This document shows, piece by piece, positions 1 to 14,132 of a DNA stretch of 14,132 bases. Every line of letters begins with the position of its first letter. The stretch's first letter is position 1. This DNA comes from a virus. The DNA lies in IMG/VR virus record IMGVR_UViG_3300045988_079294. One strand, given 5' to 3'. The translations under genes were made by a program, and so were the position numbers. The notes under the pieces are model-generated. The model worked only from the letters and a program-made list of their open reading frames with translations. It was not told the DNA's origin and did no database searches.

Positions 1-16
1 GCGAAAACCTAATACG

Positions 17-122
17 GTTAGAGACCTCTAACTTCCCACGGGCTGCTTTAACACGCTAAAGCGTTAAAGCGTTTGTTAATTAACTAACAATCTCAGCGTC
101 AGCCCTGTTAAAGCTCTCTAAC
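17..122. repeat. Array of short palindromes and iterated GTTA-core motifs in the terminal non-coding DNA (putative origin/terminal-protein-polymerase recognition region)
   Basis: GTTAGAG 17-23 and CTCTAAC 26-32 are inverted with a 2-bp spacer. GCTTTAAC 45-52 and GTTAAAGC 63-70 are inverted. GTTAATTAAC 75-84 is a perfect 10-bp palindrome. GTTAAAGC recurs at 107-114 and CTCTAAC at 116-122. The whole array is mirrored at 14011-14116. Confidence 0.6.
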
Positions 123-138
123 CGCCCGGCCATGTGAA

Positions 139-164
139 GGGCGCAAGCCTCGGTGCCTGCGCCC
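139..164 (-). terminator. GC-rich hairpin downstream of the left ITR ORF (weak terminator or 3'-end stabiliser)
   Basis: Mirror image of 13969-13994. The stem is about 10 bp (GGGCGCAGGC / GCTTGCGCCC, one G-U). No clean U tract follows it (TTCACAT). Confidence 0.3.
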
Positions 165-173
165 GTGATCGTG

Positions 174-404
174 TTACCAATTGTAAGCCTCCATGTACTC
201 GGTCACGTCCTCTACGTAATCCATGAAGTATTGTGATCCCTTGCCGTAGTCAGGGCGCTCCACGCGGTACAGGCTGTAGATGGGATTGAGGTTGTCTTCG
301 CACTCAAGGCGGATAACGTAGCGATATTTCTTGGTCGTGTAGCTGATCTCTCCGAAGTCGTGCTTGCCGTTTTCAATTATGTTCATAATGAATTTGCTAG
401 TCAT
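174..404 (-). CDS. ITR-encoded 76-aa protein of unknown function, left copy (net acidic, Tyr-rich)
   Basis: Intact ORF, nucleotide-identical to 13729-13959. It has its own consensus promoter (435-463, minus strand) and a GGGAG RBS 9 nt before the ATG. I recognise no motif in it. Confidence 0.7.
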   Translation of the reverse strand: MTSKFIMNIIENGKHDFGEISYTTKKYRYVIRLECEDNLNPIYSLYRVERPDYGKGSQYFMDYVEDVTEYMEAYNW

Positions 405-434
405 GTTTTTTCGCTCCCTTCTCTTGATGGTTAA

Positions 435-463
435 AGTATATCATATATTCCTCAATTTGTCAA
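435..463 (-). promoter_or_regulatory. Leftward sigma70/SigA-type promoter of the left ITR ORF
   Basis: Read on the minus strand: TTGACA (458-463), a 17-nt spacer, then extended -10 TGaTATACT (-10 hexamer 435-440). TTTTCGAAAA (468-477) lies 4 nt upstream of the -35. Confidence 0.75.
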
Positions 464-485: not shown

Positions 486-514
486 TTGACTTTACAGTAA
501 ATATATGATATACT
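486..514 (+). promoter_or_regulatory. Rightward early promoter
   Basis: TTGACT 486-491, a 17-nt spacer, then TGaTATACT with the -10 at 509-514. It shares the 16-nt core ATATATGATATACTTT with both ITR promoters. It is followed by an AAAGGAGG RBS (524-531) and the ATG at 539. Confidence 0.8.
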
Positions 515-2029: not shown

Positions 2030-4027
2030 ATGGATAGCGTTTACACCGTAGAGACATTTCCGTTTGAACTCATAGCGCAGGCGAAACATGTAAAGCGTAA
2101 GCGTGGTAATAACGGCGGTAGAAGTAAACGCGATTTGAAAGACCTTGTATGCGCATTTGATATTGAAACATCTAATCTCCCTGATATTGAGCAAGCATCT
2201 ATGTATATCTGGCAACTACAGATTGACGATCTGGGCACGATCATCGGGCGAACATGGGACGAATACCGGCAACTGCTGGCGCGCGTGTGTGACTTGCTGG
2301 GCGAGAACGAGAGTATTGTTTTTTACGTGCACAATCTCTCGTTTGAATTCCAGTTTTTGCGCGGTATTTATCCCTTTCAGCCGGACGAGGTTTTCTGCAT
2401 GGACAGCCGTAAGATACTGTACTGTTCTATGTTCGACGGGAAAATCCTCTACCGTTGCAGTTACATACATAGTAACATGAGCCTTGCGGACTACACCAAG
2501 AAAATGGGCGTGGAGCATGTCAAGCTATCGGGCGTAGATTTTGATTATCACGAAACGCGCTACCCATGGACTCCACTAACCGATGAGCAGATAGCCTATT
2601 GTATTCATGACGTGCGAGGCCTAGTTGAAGCACTGAAAAAGGAAATGGAAGTTGACGGCGATACACTGATAACCATTCCGCTAACGTCAACCGGTTACGT
2701 GCGTCGGGACGCAAAGCGAGCGATGAAGCAAGTGAGCCACACATTGGTTTCTTCCATTCTTCCGGACGAGAAAACATTTATCTTGCTTCGTGAGGCCTTC
2801 CGTGGTGGGAACACTCACGCAAACCGCTACTATGCTGGGCGCATCATTACTGATGTGGCTAGTGCTGACCGTTCAAGCAGCTACCCCGACACGCAAGTAA
2901 ATTGCAAGTTTCCCATGTCGCGATTTTACTATAAGGGCGAGGCGACCATGAAGGAACTTGAACGCTATATCAATGTGCTGGATAAGGCTGTTGTCATGCG
3001 CGTGGCCTTGTGGGGCGTGCGGCTCCGTGACCCATACTGGGGCGCGCCCTATCTGGCAAGGGACAAGTGTCGGAAGATTATAGAGCCAACCTACGACAAC
3101 GGACGAATATTGGAGTGCAAATACTGTGAAACTACGATTACAGATGTGGACTTGCGAATTCTGCTGGACGAATACGATTTTGATAATTTTAAGGCGTTTG
3201 ACGTAGCATTTGCCCGCTATGGCAAGCTTCCCCGTCCGTTGGTGGAAGAGACAATAAACTACTACCGAAAAAAGACCGAACTAAAGAACGTGGAAGGGCA
3301 GGAAATATATTACATGAAGAGCAAGAACAAATTGAATTCCATCTATGGCATGATGGCACAGAATCCAGCCAAGGAAACCATACTATTTAAGGATAACGAT
3401 TATATTAAAGATGATATACCTCTGGGCGAACGCCTGAAGGAAGCGAATCGCCGAGCATTTCTGGCTTATCAGTGGGGGTGCTGGGTGACCGCATGGGCGC
3501 GCTACCGGCTAGAAGAAGGTATCAAGCTGGCTGGCGACCAGTTTGTCTATTGTGATACGGATTGTGTAAAGTACGTCCGAGAGATTGACTGGCGACCCTA
3601 CAACGTACAGCGTATTAAAGACAGCACGTCGAACGGAGCCTTTGCAGATGATCCGAGCGGAGAACGGCACTATATGGGTGTGTATGAACAGGAAAAGACT
3701 GATCAACGGTTTAAGACGCTGGGCGCGAAAAAATACGCATTTGAGCAGGACGGGAAGACCTATATCACCGTGGCGGGCGTAAACAAACGGTTAGGTGGGA
3801 AAGAACTGGAACGGTTTGGAGGATTAGATGCATTTAACGAAGGGTTTATCTTCCGGGAGGCTGGCGGCATGGAAAGCGTCTACAACGATGAACCGTATGG
3901 ATATGTCAATATTGACGGGCATGAACTCTACGTGGGGACGAATGTCCTTCTCCGTGATAGCACATACTCGCTAGGCATCACGGACGAGTATCGCAGAATC
4001 CTTGAAAAATGTTACTGCATGGGTTGA
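2030..4027 (+). CDS. Family B DNA polymerase, protein-primed (phi29 gp2-like), 665 aa
   Basis: ExoI is FDIET (D44 codon 2159-2161). ExoII-like is HNLSFEF (2330-2350). ExoIII is YCIHD. Motif A is DRSSSYP (from 2867). Motif B is KNKLNSIYG (3323-3349). Motif C is YCDTDC (3548-3565). The KxY motif is GAKKYAF. Confidence 0.93.
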   Translation: MDSVYTVETFPFELIAQAKHVKRKRGNNGGRSKRDLKDLVCAFDIETSNLPDIEQASMYIWQLQIDDLGTIIGRTWDEYRQLLARVCDLLGENESIVFYVHNLSFEFQFLRGIYPFQPDEVFCMDSRKILYCSMFDGKILYRCSYIHSNMSLADYTKKMGVEHVKLSGVDFDYHETRYPWTPLTDEQIAYCIHDVRGLVEALKKEMEVDGDTLITIPLTSTGYVRRDAKRAMKQVSHTLVSSILPDEKTFILLREAFRGGNTHANRYYAGRIITDVASADRSSSYPDTQVNCKFPMSRFYYKGEATMKELERYINVLDKAVVMRVALWGVRLRDPYWGAPYLARDKCRKIIEPTYDNGRILECKYCETTITDVDLRILLDEYDFDNFKAFDVAFARYGKLPRPLVEETINYYRKKTELKNVEGQEIYYMKSKNKLNSIYGMMAQNPAKETILFKDNDYIKDDIPLGERLKEANRRAFLAYQWGCWVTAWARYRLEEGIKLAGDQFVYCDTDCVKYVREIDWRPYNVQRIKDSTSNGAFADDPSGERHYMGVYEQEKTDQRFKTLGAKKYAFEQDGKTYITVAGVNKRLGGKELERFGGLDAFNEGFIFREAGGMESVYNDEPYGYVNIDGHELYVGTNVLLRDSTYSLGITDEYRRILEKCYCMG

Positions 4028-4052
4028 CAAACTGCGCTCCATGGTATATAAT
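4024..4052 (+). promoter_or_regulatory. Consensus sigma70/SigA-type promoter
   Basis: TTGACA 4024-4029, a 17-nt spacer, TATAAT 4047-4052. The polymerase stop codon TGA (4025-4027) lies inside the -35 hexamer. Confidence 0.8.
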
Positions 4053-4058
4053 ATATTC

Positions 4059-4219
4059 GTAACGCAAAGCATCCCAAGCGTGGCATGCAGGTAGGAACAT
4101 TGAGCAGCGCCTACCGACTGCCTGTCTCCCGTGACGTGTGGAAGTTATAGCCTCCTTCCGTGCGTCGCACGACACCCGACTAACCTATCTACCAAATAAG
4201 AGAAACGGAGAAGAAAACT
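4059..4219 (+). other. Structured ~160-nt non-coding leader or candidate small RNA between the promoter and the SSB-like gene
   Basis: No credible + strand ORF. Hairpin 1 spans 4082-4126: 13 pairs with one mismatch, a 3-nt bulge and a 14-nt loop. Hairpin 2 spans 4131-4168: 14 pairs including 4 G-U, with a 10-nt loop. No U tract occurs before the ATG at 4220. Confidence 0.4.
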
Positions 4220-4555
4220 ATGAAAGTTATTGCCAAGTCTAACAACCTCAAGCCGCAGGAACTCTACCAGATGGCCAACGGGAACGACATTAAGCGCATG
4301 CGCGATGTGGCCGGACAGACGCTTGACCTTGCGGGCTGGCTCATCTTTGAGGACGAGAAGCCCGACGGGGAAATCTCCACGATTGTGACCGTACGCACGA
4401 CCGAAGGCGAAATGTACGCCACCAATTCACCGACCTTCCGCCGTAGCTTCGAAAGCATGACTGCCTTCTTTGAATCCGTGGACGCTATCAGAGTTGTGTC
4501 CGCGACCAGCAAGAAGGGAAGGCCGTTCATCACTTGCGACTACGTGGAACGCTAA
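4220..4555 (+). CDS. Putative single-stranded DNA-binding protein (phi29 gp5-like), 111 aa
   Basis: From memory of phi29 p5, TIVTVRTTEGEMYATNSPTF resembles TVTTIFAADGSLYSAISKTV, and IRVVSATSKKGRPF resembles VKVVQGTSSKGNVF. It forms a monocistronic unit between a consensus promoter and a strong terminator, consistent with a highly expressed protein. Confidence 0.5.
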   Translation: MKVIAKSNNLKPQELYQMANGNDIKRMRDVAGQTLDLAGWLIFEDEKPDGEISTIVTVRTTEGEMYATNSPTFRRSFESMTAFFESVDAIRVVSATSKKGRPFITCDYVER

Positions 4556-4562
4556 ACCGGAC

Positions 4563-4590
4563 AGCGCCCTTCATGGGCGCTTTTCTTTTT
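4563..4590 (+). terminator. Rho-independent terminator
   Basis: Perfect 7-bp stem AGCGCCC/GGGCGCT (4563-4569 / 4575-4581) with a 5-nt loop, followed by TTTCTTTTT (4582-4590). It starts 8 nt after the stop codon. Confidence 0.85.
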
Positions 4591-4622
4591 AATGTTCCAC
4601 GTGAAACAATGGGAGGTGCGAA

Positions 4623-5675
4623 ATGAAACTTTACAACGTTGACGGCTGGGCGGACATTCCCGCGATTCTGGAATATTGCGAACGGCAAGGCTGCTTTACG
4701 GTCTTTCTGGTGGGTGGGCGTGGTACAGGCAAGACATACGGCGCGCTATCCTACGTGTTGGATACTCAAACCACGTTTATGTACATGCGGCGGACGCAGG
4801 CTCAGGCTGATATGGTGAGCAGGCCTGAGTTTTCGCCATTTAAGTCTATCAATGACGACCGTGATATCTATATCGGTTCTGTTGCCGTCTCCAAGTATTC
4901 CGCCGGATTTTATCACATGGAGCAGGATAGCGACGATAAATGGAAGCCCGTCGGCGCTCCGCTGGGCTATTCATGCGCCCTGTCTACAATCTCAAATATG
5001 CGCGGCTTTGATGCGTCAAATGTGCGCCTACTTGTATATGACGAGTTTATTCCAGAGCGCCATGAGCGCCCCATAAAGAACGAAGCCGCAGCACTGTTTA
5101 ACGCATACGAGACGATCAGCCGCAACCGTGAAATGAAGGGGCAGAAGCCGTTAATCATGCTATGCTTGTCCAACGCGAACGACCTTGCAAACCCCATTTT
5201 TATGGAGCTCGGCCTTGTGGATAAGGTGGAGCGCATGCGTCAAAAAGGGCGCAGCGAATACATAGACCACAAGCGCGGTTGCGCGGTTATCCTGCTGACG
5301 GATAGCCCTATCAGCCACGCCAAGCGGGAAACGGCGCTTTACCGTCTGACGGCGGGCACCCAATTTGCAGATATGGCGCTGGCTAACGATTTTACTCAGG
5401 ATCACCCGATTAATATTGTGTCGAAGGACTTGAAGCAGTACCGCCCTCTATGCGCTGTTGGGGAGATTACAATATATAAACATAAATCCGCTCAGGAGTA
5501 TTACGTCTCCACTCATCGCAGCGGCTCGCCGCGCTCATATGATGCTACGCCCTACGGGTGCGCGCAATTCCAGAAGGAACAGGCCTGGCTTCGCATTGCC
5601 TATCTTGAAGGAAAGTTATATTTTGAGTCATATTCTTGTCAAAAATACTTGACAAATTACCTTAAGACTGTATAA
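4623..5675 (+). CDS. DNA encapsidation (packaging) ATPase, phi29 gp16-like, 350 aa
   Basis: Walker A is GGRGTGKT (4713-4736). Walker B is LLVYDE (5028-5045). The block VYDEFIPE...NEAAALFNAYETISRNRE...IMLCLSNANDLANPIF parallels phi29 gp16 VFDEFIRE...NEVSALLNLMDTVFRNRE...CICLSNAVSVVNPYF (recalled from memory). GGGAGGTG RBS. Confidence 0.9.
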   Translation: MKLYNVDGWADIPAILEYCERQGCFTVFLVGGRGTGKTYGALSYVLDTQTTFMYMRRTQAQADMVSRPEFSPFKSINDDRDIYIGSVAVSKYSAGFYHMEQDSDDKWKPVGAPLGYSCALSTISNMRGFDASNVRLLVYDEFIPERHERPIKNEAAALFNAYETISRNREMKGQKPLIMLCLSNANDLANPIFMELGLVDKVERMRQKGRSEYIDHKRGCAVILLTDSPISHAKRETALYRLTAGTQFADMALANDFTQDHPINIVSKDLKQYRPLCAVGEITIYKHKSAQEYYVSTHRSGSPRSYDATPYGCAQFQKEQAWLRIAYLEGKLYFESYSCQKYLTNYLKTV

Positions 5676-5676
5676 T
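5649..5676 (+). promoter_or_regulatory. Consensus promoter overlapping the 3' end of the ATPase gene
   Basis: TTGACA 5649-5654, a 16-nt spacer, TATAAT 5671-5676. The ATPase stop TAA (5673-5675) lies inside the -10. The inverted repeat TTGTCAA (5636-5642) N6 TTGACAA (5649-5655) overlaps the -35. Confidence 0.7.
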
Positions 5677-6754: not shown

Positions 6755-6772
6755 CAGAAAGGAAGGTTGAAC

Positions 6773-7972
6773 ATGGCTAACACTCTTTCCATCGATCAGG
6801 TTTGTACCGTCCTCAACTCCGTTGTCCAGCAGGCGACGGGCGCGGCGGACATGGCCGCAACGGATACCGCAAGTTTTGTCACGGTTGCCAAGTACGGCCT
6901 TGAGAAGGGCTACGACCCGCTCATGACCGCGATTTCTCAGGTGCTTTCACGCACGCTGTTTGCCGTGCGCCCGTACAGCGCCAAGTTTAAGGGACTCATG
7001 GCGGACTCCATCCGCTATGGCAACCACGTCCGCAAGATTAACTATATTGACAAGCCGACCGTGGAAAGCCGCGTCCTCCAGCTGACGGAAGGCCAGAGCG
7101 AAGATCAGTATATCGTTCGCAAGCCCGAAGTAGTACAGACGAACTTCTATGGCGGCGGCACGTGGCAGGACTATATCACTCGCTATACCGAGCAGCTCGA
7201 CACTGCTTTCAGCGGCCCGGAAGAGTTTGGCCGTTTCATTTCCGGACTTATGACCGAGCTAACGAACAAACATGAGCAGGAAAATGAAAGCATGGCGCGT
7301 ATGGCGCTTGTGAACTTTATCGGCGGCAAGATTGCGGGCGATACGTCGAACGTTATCCATCTGCTGACCGAGTACAACGCGCTTACCGGGCTCAATCTGA
7401 CCGCGCAGTCCGTATACACTCCGAGCAACTTCAAGCCGTTCATGCAGTGGGTGTACTCCCGCATCGCTGGCCTGTGCGCCATGATGACTGAGCGTTCCGT
7501 CAAGTTCCACACCAACCTCAACATTGGCGGGCAGAACAAACTTATCATGCGGCATACTCCGTACCCGCAGCAGAAAATCTATCTCACCGCACAGAACCGC
7601 TACCAGAGCGAAGCGCAGGTACTCGCCGATACCTATCATGATAACTACCTGCGGATGGCGGACGTTGAGACGGTTAACTACTGGCAGGATATTGATAATC
7701 CCGCCAAAATCAGCGTCTACGAATCCTATCTTAAGCCTGACGGCACGATCGCGACCAACAGCAAGAAGGAAAGCGGCGACGCTCCGACCACAACGGATAA
7801 ACTCTTCGGTGTTATCTTTGACGAAGAAGCCGTAGGCGTGACCATGATTAACAACAGTCTGACCGCGACCCCGATTAACGCGCGCGGACTGTATACCAAC
7901 CTCTGGTGGAACTCCACTTACCGCTGGTGGAACGACTTCACCGAAAACGGTATCGTCCTGCTGCTCGACTAA
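6773..7972 (+). CDS. Major capsid protein, phi29 gp8-like core (no C-terminal Ig-like domain), ~399 aa
   Basis: C-terminal NARGLYTNLWWNSTYRWWNDFTENGIVLL resembles phi29 gp8 [29 protein letters not shown] (from memory). Position and size also fit. ATG 6773 is preferred over the track's TTG 6767 because of the AAAGGAAGG RBS spacing. Confidence 0.8.
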   Translation: MANTLSIDQVCTVLNSVVQQATGAADMAATDTASFVTVAKYGLEKGYDPLMTAISQVLSRTLFAVRPYSAKFKGLMADSIRYGNHVRKINYIDKPTVESRVLQLTEGQSEDQYIVRKPEVVQTNFYGGGTWQDYITRYTEQLDTAFSGPEEFGRFISGLMTELTNKHEQENESMARMALVNFIGGKIAGDTSNVIHLLTEYNALTGLNLTAQSVYTPSNFKPFMQWVYSRIAGLCAMMTERSVKFHTNLNIGGQNKLIMRHTPYPQQKIYLTAQNRYQSEAQVLADTYHDNYLRMADVETVNYWQDIDNPAKISVYESYLKPDGTIATNSKKESGDAPTTTDKLFGVIFDEEAVGVTMINNSLTATPINARGLYTNLWWNSTYRWWNDFTENGIVLLLD

Positions 7973-7992: not shown

Positions 7993-9582
7993 ATGCCCGA
8001 GTTGAAAGTATTTCTTTCCAACTTTTCAAAAAAATCGAATTCTACGAAACTCCCTCCCGAAGACGTTGCACAGATTGCGTTTACGGGGGTGCTCCGTGAG
8101 GGCACTTCCGTACTCGCTCCTGTTATCGGATTCGATTTTGGAGCAGGCGGAACACAAATAAACATGTTCGGCACGCATGGCGCTACCTATGCCGTAATTA
8201 CCGAAACATTTTCGCGCTCCTATTTTATAAATAACTGGACATATCAAGATGGCTTGTGGTGGGCATCTATGACCGTCGACGTGCTAGGAACATACCGCGC
8301 GAACATTGGCGCGATGAGCGCGTACATTCTGCGCGCGTCTAATGCGCTGGCGTGGAACCTCAACGCCAAAGATGGGACATATCCGGCAGTAGGAGGCACA
8401 AACTATAGTTATCAGTATGTGCTTAACCCATGGTATGACCCTACGACCGCAACGCAACCCGGCTACTTGCTGGGCGTGATGAACAATGATGAGAGCGTGA
8501 CCATGCAGCGCGGCGGAGTGAAATACTATCTAATGAGCGATGCAGAGATGCGCGCCCTCATTAGTTATATGATGGGTAATGTTAACTATCTTAATATCAG
8601 CGCGGAAGATGTGAGTGAAAGCGTCGCCAAAATCCTGCTTAATCCATCGCAGTACATCGTTTCTATTAAGTGGTATCCGGATTATACTTTTCTTTTTAAC
8701 CAGCTGGCCAGTGGGAACAAAATTGATTTTAATTTCGGCTGGTGGACACTTACAGGTGTAAAAAACTCCACGACGAAAACCAACGTCACGAGATTGACAA
8801 AGAACTGGGTTATCACCGTCCCAAAACATCCCATGGCAGCAACTTACAAATACACACAGCTAGAACCATACAGTCATTATGTCCTGCACATTCCCCCGTG
8901 GGGGGATATTGGCGTTGACAGTTCCCTGCTTTATGACCTTGACACTGTAGCCGTGTCCGTCCACATCGACCCTACATTGAGCTATGCGGAACTTGAAATC
9001 CAATCGACTGACGGTAACTACCATCCGATGGCGAGATACGAGGGAACCGTTGGCGTAGAGGTTCCGCTGACTACTATCCAAACGCAGGGCGACGTATCGA
9101 AACAGCTTCAGGCGGCATTAGGGCAAGCCGGTTCTCAGATTCTGAACAGCAGCCCTATACAGAGATTCGCAGCAGGTGCACGAGAGACGGCAGCTGAAAT
9201 TATGAGCAAGGCCACTTCTATAGGCAGTTTCGGAACTCTGAACCAACCTGCTGAAGCGTTCTCTAGCCGCATGATTAGTGCAACTGAATTGGCAAGCACT
9301 GTTCTAGATTCCGCTATGAGCGGACAAATTAACGCTTCGTCCTCCGGTTGCGCAGATGCAAGCATGGTTTACTACGATAACGGCTATCTCAGGCTGGATT
9401 ATCTCGATATGGCCGCAACCTCTGATGCTACATTCGGCCGTCCATCCCTTCAGTTTAAGCAGATTTCGACAATTCCCGGTTATATACAGACCGCTAACCC
9501 GCATTTTGCAGTGCCTACCGCAACAGATAGTGAGAATGCAGCAATAGTGCGATATATGCAAGGGGGCTTCTGGTATGAGTGA
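7993..9582 (+). CDS. Tail (knob/tube) protein, phi29 gp9-like, 529 aa
   Basis: The N-terminal region FSKKSNSTK...ATYAVITETFSRSYFINNWTYQDGLWWASMTVDVLGTY parallels phi29 gp9 FSNDYKNTR...[43 protein letters not shown] (from memory). GGGAGGGAG RBS lies 5 nt before ATG 7993. The track's 7906 start overlaps the capsid gene and has no RBS. Confidence 0.6.
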   Translation: MPELKVFLSNFSKKSNSTKLPPEDVAQIAFTGVLREGTSVLAPVIGFDFGAGGTQINMFGTHGATYAVITETFSRSYFINNWTYQDGLWWASMTVDVLGTYRANIGAMSAYILRASNALAWNLNAKDGTYPAVGGTNYSYQYVLNPWYDPTTATQPGYLLGVMNNDESVTMQRGGVKYYLMSDAEMRALISYMMGNVNYLNISAEDVSESVAKILLNPSQYIVSIKWYPDYTFLFNQLASGNKIDFNFGWWTLTGVKNSTTKTNVTRLTKNWVITVPKHPMAATYKYTQLEPYSHYVLHIPPWGDIGVDSSLLYDLDTVAVSVHIDPTLSYAELEIQSTDGNYHPMARYEGTVGVEVPLTTIQTQGDVSKQLQAALGQAGSQILNSSPIQRFAAGARETAAEIMSKATSIGSFGTLNQPAEAFSSRMISATELASTVLDSAMSGQINASSSGCADASMVYYDNGYLRLDYLDMAATSDATFGRPSLQFKQISTIPGYIQTANPHFAVPTATDSENAAIVRYMQGGFWYE

Positions 9583-10255
9583 ATGGACGAAACCTAATGA
9601 TCCAGATGGTCCCGCTATAGTCCATCCGCTGGAAGAACTCAGGGAAGAGACGGGAACCTATGGCAAATACTGGACGGGGAACCGCGACATTACCGACTAC
9701 AGCGACAAACAGAAGCAAAACGCAGTTTATCTCTGGGCATGGGGCAAGGCCAAGGGCTACACGCTAGAAGCAATTTCGGGCATGGCCGGGAACATGACGC
9801 GCGAGAGCCACATAGACCCCGGCAGATGGCAAAAAGTATCCAGCGGCATGACCAAGCGTAAGCAAGGATACGGGCTGGTGCAATGGACGCCATATTGGAA
9901 ATATGGCGACTGGTGCGAAGCGCAAAACCTATACCCGCCCAAATATGATAGCGCGCTGGCGCGCATAGAATACGAGATAGCCAACAATGAGCAGTGGATT
10001 CCAACGAAAACGTATAACCTTACATTCACAGAGTATTTACACACGTCAGATCAAACTATTGAATGGATGGCCAAGGCATTCTTTTACAACTATGAGCGCG
10101 GCAGCGACGCAAGTACACGTGTAAAGCCTGCTCAGTATTGGTATGAGTATCTGGGCGGGGTAACGCCACCATCGCCGGGAGTGACCACGCTTCCCGTTTG
10201 GCTACTCAAAAAATGCGTTGATAACCAACGCAGAGGAAGGGGGATATTCTATTGA
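9575..10255 (+). CDS. Tail-associated peptidoglycan hydrolase (phage tail lysozyme domain), 226 aa
   Basis: ISGMAGNMTRESHIDPGRWQ...QGYGLVQWT matches the AGxxGNxxxES...GxGxxQWT signature of the phage tail lysozyme family. This is the same type as the N-terminal domain of phi29 gp13. The start overlaps the tail gene stop by 8 nt. Confidence 0.65.
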   Translation: MSEWTKPNDPDGPAIVHPLEELREETGTYGKYWTGNRDITDYSDKQKQNAVYLWAWGKAKGYTLEAISGMAGNMTRESHIDPGRWQKVSSGMTKRKQGYGLVQWTPYWKYGDWCEAQNLYPPKYDSALARIEYEIANNEQWIPTKTYNLTFTEYLHTSDQTIEWMAKAFFYNYERGSDASTRVKPAQYWYEYLGGVTPPSPGVTTLPVWLLKKCVDNQRRGRGIFY

Positions 10256-11196
10256 ACGCCCCATACTATTATGACTACATAAACAAACAGAACAGCACTG
10301 TTAAGCCGTCAACCGTTCATATCCACAATACCGGATTGTCCATGTTCTTCAAGCGTTACCTGTTGCAGCGCGCTATCTCCGTGTTTAAGTGGAAACTTCC
10401 GGAGACGTGGAGCAAGGACTATTTCCTCTATTCGCTATATTGCTGGGGCTATGTCGCTATTGTCAACACTGACAAATTCGGAGTTATCCCGCAGGCTTGC
10501 GGCCTGAGCGGATACGACGTATTTTACCAGCCCACAAACGCCATTATTGCGAACCCGCTTCTGCGCGGAACCCTACAGCCGAAAATTGGCAAGGAATGCA
10601 CACTAATTAAGCTACAGCCCGACTATGGCAACGTAATGGGGCTTGTGGACTACTACGGCGACCTTCTCGCGCTGACTGCCGAGAGCACCAGCGTTAACCT
10701 TGTCAATACTCATATGGCCTATGTCTTCGCGGCTGGCAACAAAGCAAGTGCCGAGACCTTCAAAAAACTCTATGACCGTGTGGCTTCTGGCGAGGTGTGC
10801 GCGGTCGTGGATAAGAGCCTGTTCAATGACGATGGTTCCCCCACATGGCAAACGTTCACGCAGAACGTCGGCCAGAACTACATCAGCGACAAACTGTTAT
10901 CCGACTTCCGCCGCATTCAGAATATGTTTGATACGGAAATCGGTATCCCGAACACCAACACCGAGAAGAAAGAACGCATGCTAGCCGATGAGGTTACCAT
11001 AAACGCAGTTGAAACCGCTAGCAAGGTAGACTTGTGGCTGGAAGAACTCAAGGACAGTTGCGAGCGCGCAAACAAGATGTTCGGACTGGATATGTCAGTA
11101 GAGTGGCGCTACCGCCCGCAGAATGTGGAGGGAGGGGACGAGGATGGCAACCGTCAGCCTGCTAGGGCTATACAGAACCGACCCGAGTCTGTTTGA
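10252..11196 (+). CDS. Portal / upper collar connector protein, phi29 gp10-like, 314 aa
   Basis: IGIPNTNTEKKERMLADEVTINAVETASKVDLWLEELKDSCERANKMFGLDMSVEWRY parallels phi29 gp10 [58 protein letters not shown] (from memory). The N-terminal block VFKWKLPETW...GYVAI matches QLFEWENLPP...GYVGF. TTG start with GGAAGGGGG upstream; the start codon is less certain than the gene call. Confidence 0.88.
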   Translation: MNAPYYYDYINKQNSTVKPSTVHIHNTGLSMFFKRYLLQRAISVFKWKLPETWSKDYFLYSLYCWGYVAIVNTDKFGVIPQACGLSGYDVFYQPTNAIIANPLLRGTLQPKIGKECTLIKLQPDYGNVMGLVDYYGDLLALTAESTSVNLVNTHMAYVFAAGNKASAETFKKLYDRVASGEVCAVVDKSLFNDDGSPTWQTFTQNVGQNYISDKLLSDFRRIQNMFDTEIGIPNTNTEKKERMLADEVTINAVETASKVDLWLEELKDSCERANKMFGLDMSVEWRYRPQNVEGGDEDGNRQPARAIQNRPESV

Positions 11197-12420: not shown

Positions 12421-13638
12421 ATGAGCATTTTTAATAACTTCCCCGCGGTTGGCGCGGGCGGAGACACAAGCGACGCAACCGCAACCGCCGCCGACATTTT
12501 GCAGGGCAAGACTGCTTATGGCGCTGACGGCAAGATTACCGGTACAATCAAGAGCATAGCGGGTGGGCAGGTTGTGCCTAAGGCGGCAGGGCAGATAGCC
12601 GCAGCCGGTAACGTATACACGACCGGCGCACGTATCATTCCCAAAGAGGATAACTTCATTCCCGCCAATATCCGCAAAGATGTATCTATCTGGGGCGTGG
12701 TGGGAACACTCGACCCCGGCAGCACGCCCACACCAGACCCCAATCTGATTCCTGCCAACGTCAAGGCAGGCGTAACCATCAACGGCGTTACGGGCACGTT
12801 CACCAACGACGCGACAATTACGGCAGATTATATACTTGACGGCTTCAGCGGTTACGCACAGGGCGCTAAAATTACGGGCAATATTCCTAGCAAGGACACT
12901 GCCACATACACGCCCGGAACCGCCGACCAGTATATCAACGCTGAGCAGTATCTAAGCGGCTCGCAGAAGATCGCAGGTGATGCTAATCTTGTGGCCGGTA
13001 ACATCGCGCAGGGAAAAAGCATTTTTGGTGTAACCGGTACATACACCAACGATGCAAACGCGACCGCCGAAAGTATGCAGCTGGGCGTGAGCGCCTACGT
13101 CAAGGGCGCGCGCGTGGTTGGTACTGCGCCCATTCAAGCGGCTAAGACGGTAACGCCTACGACCACGGAGCAGACCGCCGTAGCAAGCGGGAGTTTTACC
13201 AGTGGGGCGGTTAAGGTGGCCGGAGATGCGAACCTAGTGGCCGAGAACATCAAGAGCGGCGTGAGCATTTTCGGAGTGGCAGGAGCCGCAGCGGCCGGAC
13301 AAAACATCGAAGGAAAATTTGTAACAGTGGACAGCACAGGCACTGGAAAAACGCTTTTAACTTGCACGTTCACCCCAAATTGGGCATTAATTGGCGGTTA
13401 TTTTAGCTACTCTGGGGGTAGCAGTGGCGCGCAGTATTACGCCAACGGAACTCTATCTAAATCAGGTTCATTCGGCGCACTTAGTTACATGAATATGAGC
13501 ATTTCAGGCTCGAATGTTGTAATTGATAAAGGCGGATTCATCGGTTCTGTTATCGCGGGAGACGGAGAGCCGCCTACATTCGACACGACACCGCTGTCTA
13601 CCAACGACGAGCCGGGAGAGCCTGACGAAACTATCTGA
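12421..13638 (+). CDS. Tail fibre / receptor-binding protein with internal repeat modules, 405 aa
   Basis: AAGGAGG RBS. Motif Y, DAxxTAxxILxGxxAYxxGxKITG, occurs at aa 18-41, 130-153 and 211-234. Motif X, (I/V)xxN(I/V)xxGVxIxGVxGT, occurs at aa 80-96, 110-126, 191-207 and 272-288. A distinct C-terminal domain follows, then an acidic Pro-rich tail. It is the last gene before the right ITR. Confidence 0.65.
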   Translation: MSIFNNFPAVGAGGDTSDATATAADILQGKTAYGADGKITGTIKSIAGGQVVPKAAGQIAAAGNVYTTGARIIPKEDNFIPANIRKDVSIWGVVGTLDPGSTPTPDPNLIPANVKAGVTINGVTGTFTNDATITADYILDGFSGYAQGAKITGNIPSKDTATYTPGTADQYINAEQYLSGSQKIAGDANLVAGNIAQGKSIFGVTGTYTNDANATAESMQLGVSAYVKGARVVGTAPIQAAKTVTPTTTEQTAVASGSFTSGAVKVAGDANLVAENIKSGVSIFGVAGAAAAGQNIEGKFVTVDSTGTGKTLLTCTFTPNWALIGGYFSYSGGSSGAQYYANGTLSKSGSFGALSYMNMSISGSNVVIDKGGFIGSVIAGDGEPPTFDTTPLSTNDEPGEPDETI

Positions 13639-13669
13639 AAAAATTCCTTAATTTATTTTCGCAAACCTC

Positions 13670-13698
13670 TTGACAGGAAATAAAATATATGATATACT
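13670..13698 (+). promoter_or_regulatory. Rightward sigma70/SigA-type promoter of the right ITR ORF
   Basis: TTGACA 13670-13675, a 17-nt spacer, TGaTATACT with the -10 at 13693-13698. TTTTCGCAAA (13656-13665) lies 4 nt upstream of the -35, matching TTTTCGAAAA at the left end. Confidence 0.75.
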
Positions 13699-13728
13699 TT
13701 AACCATCAAGAGAAGGGAGCGAAAAAAC

Positions 13729-13959
13729 ATGACTAGCAAATTCATTATGAACATAATTGAAAACGGCAAGCACGACTTCGGAGAGATCAGCTACACGACC
13801 AAGAAATATCGCTACGTTATCCGCCTTGAGTGCGAAGACAACCTCAATCCCATCTACAGCCTGTACCGCGTGGAGCGCCCTGACTACGGCAAGGGATCAC
13901 AATACTTCATGGATTACGTAGAGGACGTGACCGAGTACATGGAGGCTTACAATTGGTAA
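13729..13959 (+). CDS. ITR-encoded 76-aa protein of unknown function, right copy
   Basis: Identical to 174-404 (-). GGGAG RBS at 13715-13719. Confidence 0.7.
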   Translation: MTSKFIMNIIENGKHDFGEISYTTKKYRYVIRLECEDNLNPIYSLYRVERPDYGKGSQYFMDYVEDVTEYMEAYNW

Positions 13960-13968
13960 CACGATCAC

Positions 13969-13994
13969 GGGCGCAGGCACCGAGGCTTGCGCCC
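13969..13994 (+). terminator. GC-rich hairpin downstream of the right ITR ORF (weak terminator or 3'-end stabiliser)
   Basis: Pairs run from G13969-C13994 to C13978-G13985, giving a 10-bp stem with one G-U. It is followed by TTCACAT rather than a U tract. Confidence 0.3.
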
Positions 13995-14132
13995 TTCACA
14001 TGGCCGGGCGGTTAGAGAGCTTTAACAGGGCTGACGCTGAGATTGTTAGTTAATTAACAAACGCTTTAACGCTTTAGCGTGTTAAAGCAGCCCGTGGGAA
14101 GTTAGAGGTCTCTAACCGTATTAGGTTTTCGC

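Follow-up and report, generated by a model that had tools for sequence, protein, structure and literature searches.

Why does a tailed phage with a genome of 14 kb carry the same small gene at both of its ends, and what might the encoded protein do? The window, i.e., the whole stretch of DNA that was analysed here, comprises 14,132 bp, the entire linear genome of a small, protein-primed gut podophage that is related to phi29. Each of its ends harbors an open reading frame of 76 codons, designated ORF76 in the following, that is oriented outward.

Genome organization and relatives

The linear genome is bounded by inverted terminal repeats (ITRs), as in phi29-like podophages of the Salasmaviridae or Guelinviridae type. 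It encodes a protein-primed family B DNA polymerase (PolB; 2030-4027; PF03175 at 1.8e-11, phrog_1907 at 7e-59), a gp16-type packaging ATPase (4623-5675; PF05894 at 7.9e-18), a phi29-type major capsid protein (Phi29_MCP; 6767-7972; PF25622 at 1.2e-15), a tail lysozyme (9575-10255) and a gp10-type connector (10252-11196; PF05352 at 2.2e-22), and every gene of the window other than ORF76 is located on the plus strand. The presumed terminal protein (TP) is a 218-aa ORF directly upstream of the polymerase gene (1372-2028), which had no match in Pfam or PHROGs and is 93-95% conserved in the relatives. Its listed TTG start is overlapped over 120 nt by a 105-aa ORF (1176-1493), and since the relatives call the TP at 202-212 aa, the true start is probably located further downstream. 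An RHH-like motif (SRSELLRAIIDVA) was recognized by eye in the 105-aa ORF, for which Pfam returned no match.

The nearest cultured relatives are the Amedibacillus phages AD70P2 and AD70P3 (Guelinviridae), with a polymerase identity of 35%, whose host genus points to Bacillota of the human gut as candidate hosts. The nearest GenBank records are unannotated phage scaffolds from human faeces with polymerase identities of at most 57%, and megablast with the complete sequence of the window found no match among GenBank phages. In one relative with a polymerase identity of 56% (L021; MT835998.1), paralogous small ORFs with the common motif DFYR.C...P...I.VY are located near both ends; this record exhibits an 81-nt inverted repeat that is offset by 170 nt and may be misassembled at its ends. 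Much closer are two genomes with 86-87% identity to the window, namely, L014 and the independent IMG/VR contig L015.

The genome also contains a second promoter class, represented by two perfect-consensus promoters of the form TTGACA-16/17-TATAAT without TG at 4024-4052 and 5649-5676, which precede the SSB-like/ATPase genes and the structural genes. A long imperfect palindrome at 4542-4602, located after the 111-aa gene, includes a canonical terminator (AGCGCCC-TTCAT-GGGCGCT and a subsequent T-run) that looks bidirectional; it gave a spurious sub-threshold miRNA match in Rfam.

ORF76 is a protein-coding gene

The left copy of ORF76 occupies positions 174-404 on the minus strand and reads towards the left end, the right copy occupies positions 13729-13959 on the plus strand and reads towards the right end, and both translate to MTSKFIMNIIENGKHDFGEISYTTKKYRYVIRLECEDNLNPIYSLYRVERPDYGKGSQYFMDYVEDVTEYMEAYNW. 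The initial annotation had described an identical 76-aa ORF with a ribosome-binding site (RBS) and a promoter at each end, reading outward, and a composition of 13 acidic (D+E), nine basic (K+R) and ten tyrosine residues. The arrangement is confirmed, and so is the composition by count. The gene call of the source is a protein of 70 aa that starts at M7. We prefer the 76-aa reading and regard the shorter call as truncated, because all homologues exhibit an MT.KFI N-terminus and because of the position of the RBS.

Frequent frameshifts or stop codons in the relatives had been named as the observation that would indicate selection on the DNA rather than on the protein. The eight available nucleotide sequences of ORF76 are instead all intact, and the length of every indel is a multiple of three. 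Pairwise dN/dS values among them are mostly 0.12-0.35; they do not exceed 0.52 in 27 of the 28 pairs and reach 0.66 in the remaining one. Differences at the first, second and third codon positions amount to 367, 393 and 713, respectively. The GC3 value of 0.71 is similar to those of the genes for the major capsid protein and the SSB-like protein. ORF76 is a genuine protein-coding gene under purifying selection. A signature of positive selection is lacking, since dN/dS is well below 1, and the codon-level selection rules out a non-coding or pRNA reading of positions 174-404.

Promoters and other expression signals

An RBS with the sequence AAGGGAG is located 9 nt upstream of the ATG of both copies (414-420, minus strand; 13713-13719, plus strand). 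The left promoter (435-463, minus strand) consists of a TTGACA hexamer (-35; 463-458), a 17-nt spacer, the TG of an extended -10 and the -10 hexamer TATACT (440-435); its right equivalent (13670-13698, plus strand) has the -35 at 13670-13675 and the -10 at 13693-13698. The pattern TTGACA-17-TG-n-TATACT, with the -10 region TGATATACT, scores 11 of 12. The boundary of the ITR falls within the promoter spacer, so that the -10, the RBS and ORF76 itself are located inside the repeat and each -35 lies 9-14 nt outside. The earlier claim of a promoter in each end hence stands as far as its presence is concerned, but the promoters do not belong entirely to the repeat, and their -35 hexamers are placed in non-identical flanks. 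The retention of a -35 at both ends, at the correct distance and in flanks that otherwise differ, argues for a functional promoter.

A divergent promoter of the same class (486-514, plus strand) serves the rightward early operon with several small ORFs, the presumed TP and PolB. The 15-mer AATATATGATATACT is common to all three promoters, i.e., the two of ORF76 and that of the early operon, and the 29-nt class pattern TTGAC[AT]-N14-TGATATACT was found three times in the window versus 0.00 times expected from 200 shuffles. Twelve copies, among them those at the two ends of L015, have retained the promoter with its spacer length and extended -10, the RBS and an upstream box, the sole -35 deviation being TTGAAA in L014. 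The proposal of a strong host-type promoter is well compatible with this near-consensus sequence and its conservation. Since its promoter and that of the operon for the replication genes (TP and polymerase) are members of one class, ORF76 is probably expressed early, a timing that is deduced from promoter class and fits the idea of an early gene.

The upstream box is the palindrome TTTTCGAAAA (468-477), which is located between the two divergent -35 hexamers; an equivalent box, TTTTCGCAAA (13656-13665, plus strand), precedes the right -35 by 4 nt. The window contains three strand-matches of the box versus 0.06 expected. With the consensus TTTTCG[AC]AAA, it precedes each -35 by 4-8 nt and is kept in most of the 12 ORF76 upstream copies, but it is degenerate in both arms of L015. 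The box at 468-477 is a candidate for an operator or an UP-like element.

Since the tail gene and the right ORF76 are not separated by any predicted terminator, this copy should also be readable from the late operon. The suggested head-on orientation of ORF76 transcription relative to replication forks from the termini is geometrically correct, but this situation is ordinary for phi29-type genomes.

Terminal repeats and copy number

The two ITR arms (1-449 and 13684-14132) comprise 449 nt each and are 100% complementary. The contig L015 starts and ends within ORF76, its repeat boundary is located at the same position of the promoter spacer as in the window, and its right junction is collinear with that of the window at 85% identity. 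Because L015 exhibits the same arrangement, we conclude that the two-copy state is real and shared. L014 harbors a single ORF76 at its left end and has an ITR of 148 bp that extends precisely as far as the stop codon of ORF76 on the left and that of the tail gene on the right; its right end stops at most 1 nt from the same terminal sequence as in the window. The ITRs of more distant relatives span 55-286 bp, contain no gene and are not accompanied by ORF76. This comparison of both ends draws on three relatives only.

The region upstream of the right ORF76 is similar to its counterpart at the left end of L014-type genomes, but not to the left end of the window itself. The right copy thus appears to have originated from recombination with an L014-type left end, followed by homogenization up to the limit of homology. 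As the compared termini show, the ITR of this lineage has expanded inwards, from a core of about 150 bp to its present 449 bp, and ORF76 with its -10 was thereby placed at both ends. Judged from these genomes, the duplication is lineage-specific. The doubled gene dosage noted in the initial annotation is valid for the window with its two copies, but it is not a conserved requirement, given the single copy of L014. The argument that ORF76 would be available whichever end enters the cell first is a conjecture that is weakened by the same one-copy relative; phi29-type phages eject their DNA with fixed polarity.

A further contig, L013 (IMGVR_UViG_3300045988_060694), was considered as a relative without ORF76 and rejected. 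Its left 1 kb (1-1000) is of bacterial origin and encodes part of a 2-oxoacid dehydrogenase E2 acyltransferase (PF00198, 1e-53); it is joined to the phage sequence at about window position 735. The contig is truncated and probably a chimeric assembly, and is therefore uninformative.

A narrowly distributed and fast-evolving protein family

ORF76 is represented in seven of 5.8 billion protein clusters. Six relatives came from the search of these clusters, and a seventh was recovered when 1.84 billion representatives were searched exhaustively with phmmer. The homologues have lengths of 73-88 aa and identities of 57-78%, and all of them are located at the polymerase-proximal end of syntenic contigs, reading outward. 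A profile search with the eight sequences recovered no additional relatives. ORF76 was found neither in a scan of reference genomes nor by tblastn in GenBank phages, and it is absent from relatives with polymerase identities of 33-57% and the same replication machinery. Three large repeat proteins from the phmmer search (P0008-P0010; arrestin-like, He_PIG/Kelch and Sel1/TPR) were discarded due to repeat-inflated scores.

The initial annotation recognized no family for the protein, and the searches bear this out: scans of every family member against Pfam, PHROGs and NCBIfam gave nothing consistent, the profile had 0 matches at E <=10 among all PDB chains, and a Foldseek search of the structural model against PDB and BFVD returned nothing at E <=0.001. 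The structure prediction and Foldseek comparison that had been recommended thus led to a model with sub-threshold matches alone. Based on an alignment of six sequences, AlphaFold2 (AF2) predicts an alpha-beta5-alpha topology with one helix, five strands and a short helix (pLDDT 81.7, pTM 0.71), and the single-sequence model is poor (pLDDT 65.5). Seven tyrosine and arginine residues are invariant (Y22, R28, Y29, Y46, R47, R50 and Y63), and four additional tyrosines (Y27, Y43, Y53 and Y59) are conserved except in the most distant homologue.

The comparison with small acidic proteins such as p56 of phi29 does not withstand the inspection of the family, in which acidity is no common trait. The isoelectric points of the eight members are 4.5, 4.8, 4.8, 5.2, 6.1, 7.9, 8.8 and 9.45, i.e., three of the eight are neutral to basic. 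The proposed analogy to p56 or another DNA mimic therefore loses its main basis. The UDG inhibitors p56, Ugi and SAUGI do not occur among the top 50 PDB Foldseek matches of ORF76.

ORF76 evolves rapidly. Between the window and L014 its dS is 1.0, its dN 0.17 and its omega 0.16, versus dS values of 0.4-0.9, dN values of 0.008-0.05 and omega values of 0.02-0.10 for the core genes, and its amino-acid divergence is four to seven times that of polymerase, ATPase, capsid, portal, TP and SSB-like proteins. The sole gene with a comparable rate is the one for the tail receptor protein, with a dN of 0.12 in the same comparison. The tail proteins of the window (12421-13638) and L014 (12334-13512) are 92% identical over the first 284 residues, and the final ~110 residues are wholly replaced, which suggests a swap of the receptor-binding domain. 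Internal repeats of the motif GDANLV..NI..G..IFGVTGT are present in the tail protein. The neighborhood of ORF76 is variable as well. The first gene of the early operon (539-742; 67 aa), which adjoins ORF76, has no counterpart in L014 and L015, and L015 contains a different 63-aa ORF at its place. This replacement characterizes the left-terminal early region as a variable accessory part of the genome.

A putative host-directed function and its main alternative

We tentatively regard ORF76 as a clade-specific early accessory protein that is most likely host-directed, an explanation that we hold with slightly less than even confidence and whose functional part we infer. Each copy forms a self-contained unit composed of a sigma-A-type near-consensus promoter with extended -10, a strong RBS, the coding sequence and a conserved G+C-rich hairpin, and this unit adjoins the terminal replication element and reads outward. 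Host RNA polymerase would transcribe ORF76 at once on DNA entry, simultaneously with the replication genes and from two templates. The product would be a soluble alpha-beta5-alpha protein without known fold relatives, and it would most likely act on a host component, serving takeover, counter-defence or exclusion instead of core replication or packaging. Such a host-directed, non-core role is suggested by the fast evolution of ORF76, its location in the most variable region of the genome, its absence from distant relatives with the same machinery and its varying copy number. An anti-defence role, as proposed in the initial annotation, would have indirect support from the first two of these features. 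Several observations count against a host-directed protein, namely, the lack of a functional or structural homologue, the dN/dS values well below 1, the constant linkage of ORF76 to the terminal replication element and the predicted Tyr/Arg-rich beta-sheet with its weak resemblance to PUR repeats. The last two would also fit a protein that binds nucleic acids or the genome terminus.

The corresponding alternative is that ORF76 is a terminus or replication factor that binds the terminal element, ssDNA intermediates or the TP, comparable to p6 and p17 of phi29, SSB or PUR-type proteins. In every relative, the gene is located next to the hairpin and the terminal element and would thus travel with its origin, its promoter class implies co-regulation with the replication genes, and the predicted five-stranded sheet bears the invariant tyrosines and arginines. 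The best PDB matches in the Foldseek search were indeed ssDNA/RNA-binding PUR repeats (8chv, 5fgo and 3nm7), but with E values of 0.18-0.8, TM scores of 0.40-0.49 and rmsd values of 6-8 A they are not significant, and we take this weak, model-based resemblance as a lead and not as a match. A factor of this kind is also difficult to reconcile with an evolutionary rate four to seven times that of TP, polymerase and SSB-like proteins, with the absence of ORF76 from relatives that use the same replication machinery at polymerase identities of 33-57%, and with a net charge that varies between acidic and basic among the family members. We accordingly consider a terminus factor unlikely.

Structured termini and the remaining alternatives

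Nine nt past the stop codon of the left ORF76, a hairpin with a 10-bp G+C-rich stem follows (GGGCGCAGGC-N6-GCTTGCGCCC; 139-164, minus strand), and the same hairpin is located after the right ORF76 (13969-13994, plus strand). The stem is 100% paired in seven of seven relatives, whereas the adjacent coding sequence is merely 73-79% identical; an invariant G.U pair is present on the outward strand, and one A-U pair has been exchanged for U-A by a compensatory swap. At the right end of L014, the same hairpin is located directly 3' of the tail gene, and a search of IMG/VR for further terminal copies of the hairpin found that of L014 alone. Regarding the features of a Rho-independent terminator, the G+C-rich stem-loop is present at 139-164, but the sequence immediately 3' of the stem, UUCACAU, is not a U-tract, and the hairpin was not among the results of the terminator scan.

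Beyond the hairpin, the outward strand contains a terminal structured element with a long stem and a three-way junction (6-131, minus strand), whose mirror copy at 14002-14127 (plus strand) results from the identity of the ITRs. As RNA, the outward strand of positions 1-173 has a predicted folding energy of -73.4 kcal/mol (z -5.5 versus shuffles), compared with -57.1 kcal/mol (z -3.5) for the opposite strand. The right end of L014 (13557-13660) keeps the architecture of the three-way junction with different inner hairpins (z -7.7). The element corresponds to the whole 148-bp ITR of L014 and hence to the core ITR of the clade. Within it, the motifs GGTTAGAGA / TCTCTAACC and TTTAAC / GTTAAAG occur repeatedly. 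The element may represent protein-binding sites of the origin DNA, a stabilizer of the mRNA 3' end or a pRNA-like RNA.

If the last of these were true, a terminal structured RNA, i.e., a pRNA-like packaging RNA or an origin RNA, could be the main product of outward transcription and ORF76 a co-transcribed leader gene. The position mimics that of the phi29 pRNA gene, the outward strand folds better than both the shuffles and the opposite strand, L014 keeps the three-way junction, and the invariant G.U pair of the hairpin is found on the outward strand. Moreover, a gp16-type ATPase and a phi29-type connector are present and a pRNA was not found elsewhere in the genome, and the element of L014, which is located directly after the last late gene, would therefore be transcribed late. 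These observations are confronted with the lack of any Rfam pRNA match at E <=1 in the genome and with a comparison of two full-length copies of the element, hence without covariation statistics. The outermost nucleotides of the genome, which necessarily act as the replication origin, are part of the element, its internal inverted repeats could equally be protein-binding sites in the DNA, and the selection on the ORF76 protein shows that the gene is no mere leader. Altogether, we regard a structured RNA as the principal product as improbable. A combined version, in which the terminus is a two-part module whose single outward transcript yields ORF76 and a structured RNA (pRNA-like or origin-acting) with ORF76 as its possible partner, has in our view an even slightly smaller chance. 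This RNA would comprise the hairpin and the three-way junction, and the packaging or origin RNA of a phi29-type phage would then be encoded within its replication origin, at either end of the genome. An alternative site at which to seek the packaging RNA is the 160-nt untranslated leader at 4055-4219, which follows a perfect promoter, precedes the 111-aa SSB-like ORF and exhibits weak structure (z -1.45).

Still a shade less probable, and thus rather doubtful, is a role of ORF76 as a small regulator of phage transcription that controls the class I early promoters or the switch from early to late genes. Its divergent orientation relative to the early operon around the conserved box TTTTCGAAAA, which recurs at the right copy, would be in agreement with such a regulator, but ORF76 lacks HTH, RHH or other DNA-binding signatures, the RHH-like candidate (recognized by eye, and without a match in Pfam) is located elsewhere at 1176-1493, and the variable charge of the family speaks against a conserved DNA-binding surface. 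Finally, metagenome assemblers can create terminal inverted duplications, and the contigs of the relatives, with 13.6-13.7 kb, correspond to the genome of the window less one arm, but an artificial inverted repeat or a chance ORF within a DNA element is scarcely credible in view of the independent contig L015 with an ORF76 start at both ends, the same spacer boundary and a collinear right junction (85%), of the differing flanks beyond the ITR that each keep a -35, and of the clear coding selection on ORF76.

Comparison with known systems

We return to the preferred explanation, an early accessory protein that is probably directed against the host, and compare it with known phage systems. The p56 protein is a DNA mimic that inhibits UDG, and its gene is located in the leftward early region of phi29. 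It is an acidic protein of 56 aa that is expressed early (PMC4974454). Both p56 and ORF76 are small proteins of protein-primed podophages, the former being early and the latter presumably so, but ORF76 differs by the lack of a significant sequence or structure match in the PDB, by its non-conserved acidity, by its own monocistronic promoter and by its location inside a long ITR. A functional parallel is gene 0.3 (Ocr) of T7, the first gene to enter the cell, which is transcribed from a promoter for the host RNA polymerase and confers anti-restriction. The likeness lies in the logic put forward by the initial annotation, whereby a strong promoter for the host polymerase on the DNA that enters first would give rise to a small protein ahead of all others; in contrast to Ocr, ORF76 is not consistently acidic, it has no similarity to it, and a relative with one copy exists. 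If ORF76 is an early host-directed factor, it would be a narrowly distributed candidate with a new fold among phage proteins for counter-defence or takeover. It originates from a group of gut podophages with genomes of 12-14 kb that has hardly been studied, and its compact native cassette makes it readily testable.

With respect to position, the closest counterpart is the pRNA gene of phi29, which reads towards the left end from its own promoter, and the left early operon of this phage is likewise leftward. The pRNA gene is located 147-320 nt from the left end (PMC11476376). This is nearly identical to the position of the left ORF76 (174-404), but the latter is protein-coding and the structured candidate RNA is found in the 173 nt downstream of ORF76. 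The structured terminal element could help to locate the missing packaging RNA of the group.

In the cultured relative AD70P2, all genes but one are located on one strand. The exception, AD70P2_00015 (L022, 11856-12056), encodes a protein of 66 aa, is located at the polymerase-proximal end, reads outward and is preceded by a TATGATATAAT-type -10; a terminal palindrome (CCTAGCAC...GTGCTAGG) is found within the 264 nt that follow the gene. As a homologue of ORF76 it was rejected, because the two proteins are unrelated (hhalign probability 0.2%). The genes agree in place and direction, but that of AD70P2 is a single copy and located outside of an ITR of 55 bp.

Diploid genes in long ITRs are known from poxviruses, from linear plasmids and chromosomes of Streptomyces and from some archaeal viruses. 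ORF76 resembles them as a complete gene in a perfect repeat with shifting boundaries and an accessory, fast-evolving content: its entire coding sequence is located within the repeat at both ends, and its expression signals lie inside or straddle it, as is the case in L015. The difference is the replicon, here a protein-primed tailed phage of 14 kb. Published ITRs of the phi29 group comprise 6-16 bp (PMC6266182). In the window, L015 and L014, the ITR boundary moves from about 150 to 449 bp within one species-level cluster and thereby alters the number of gene copies. Their comparison represents a small and tractable system for the question how protein-primed replicons homogenize and extend their terminal repeats. 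The arrangement does not overturn the current understanding and is a variation on two known themes, the early orphan accessory gene and the diploid ITR gene.
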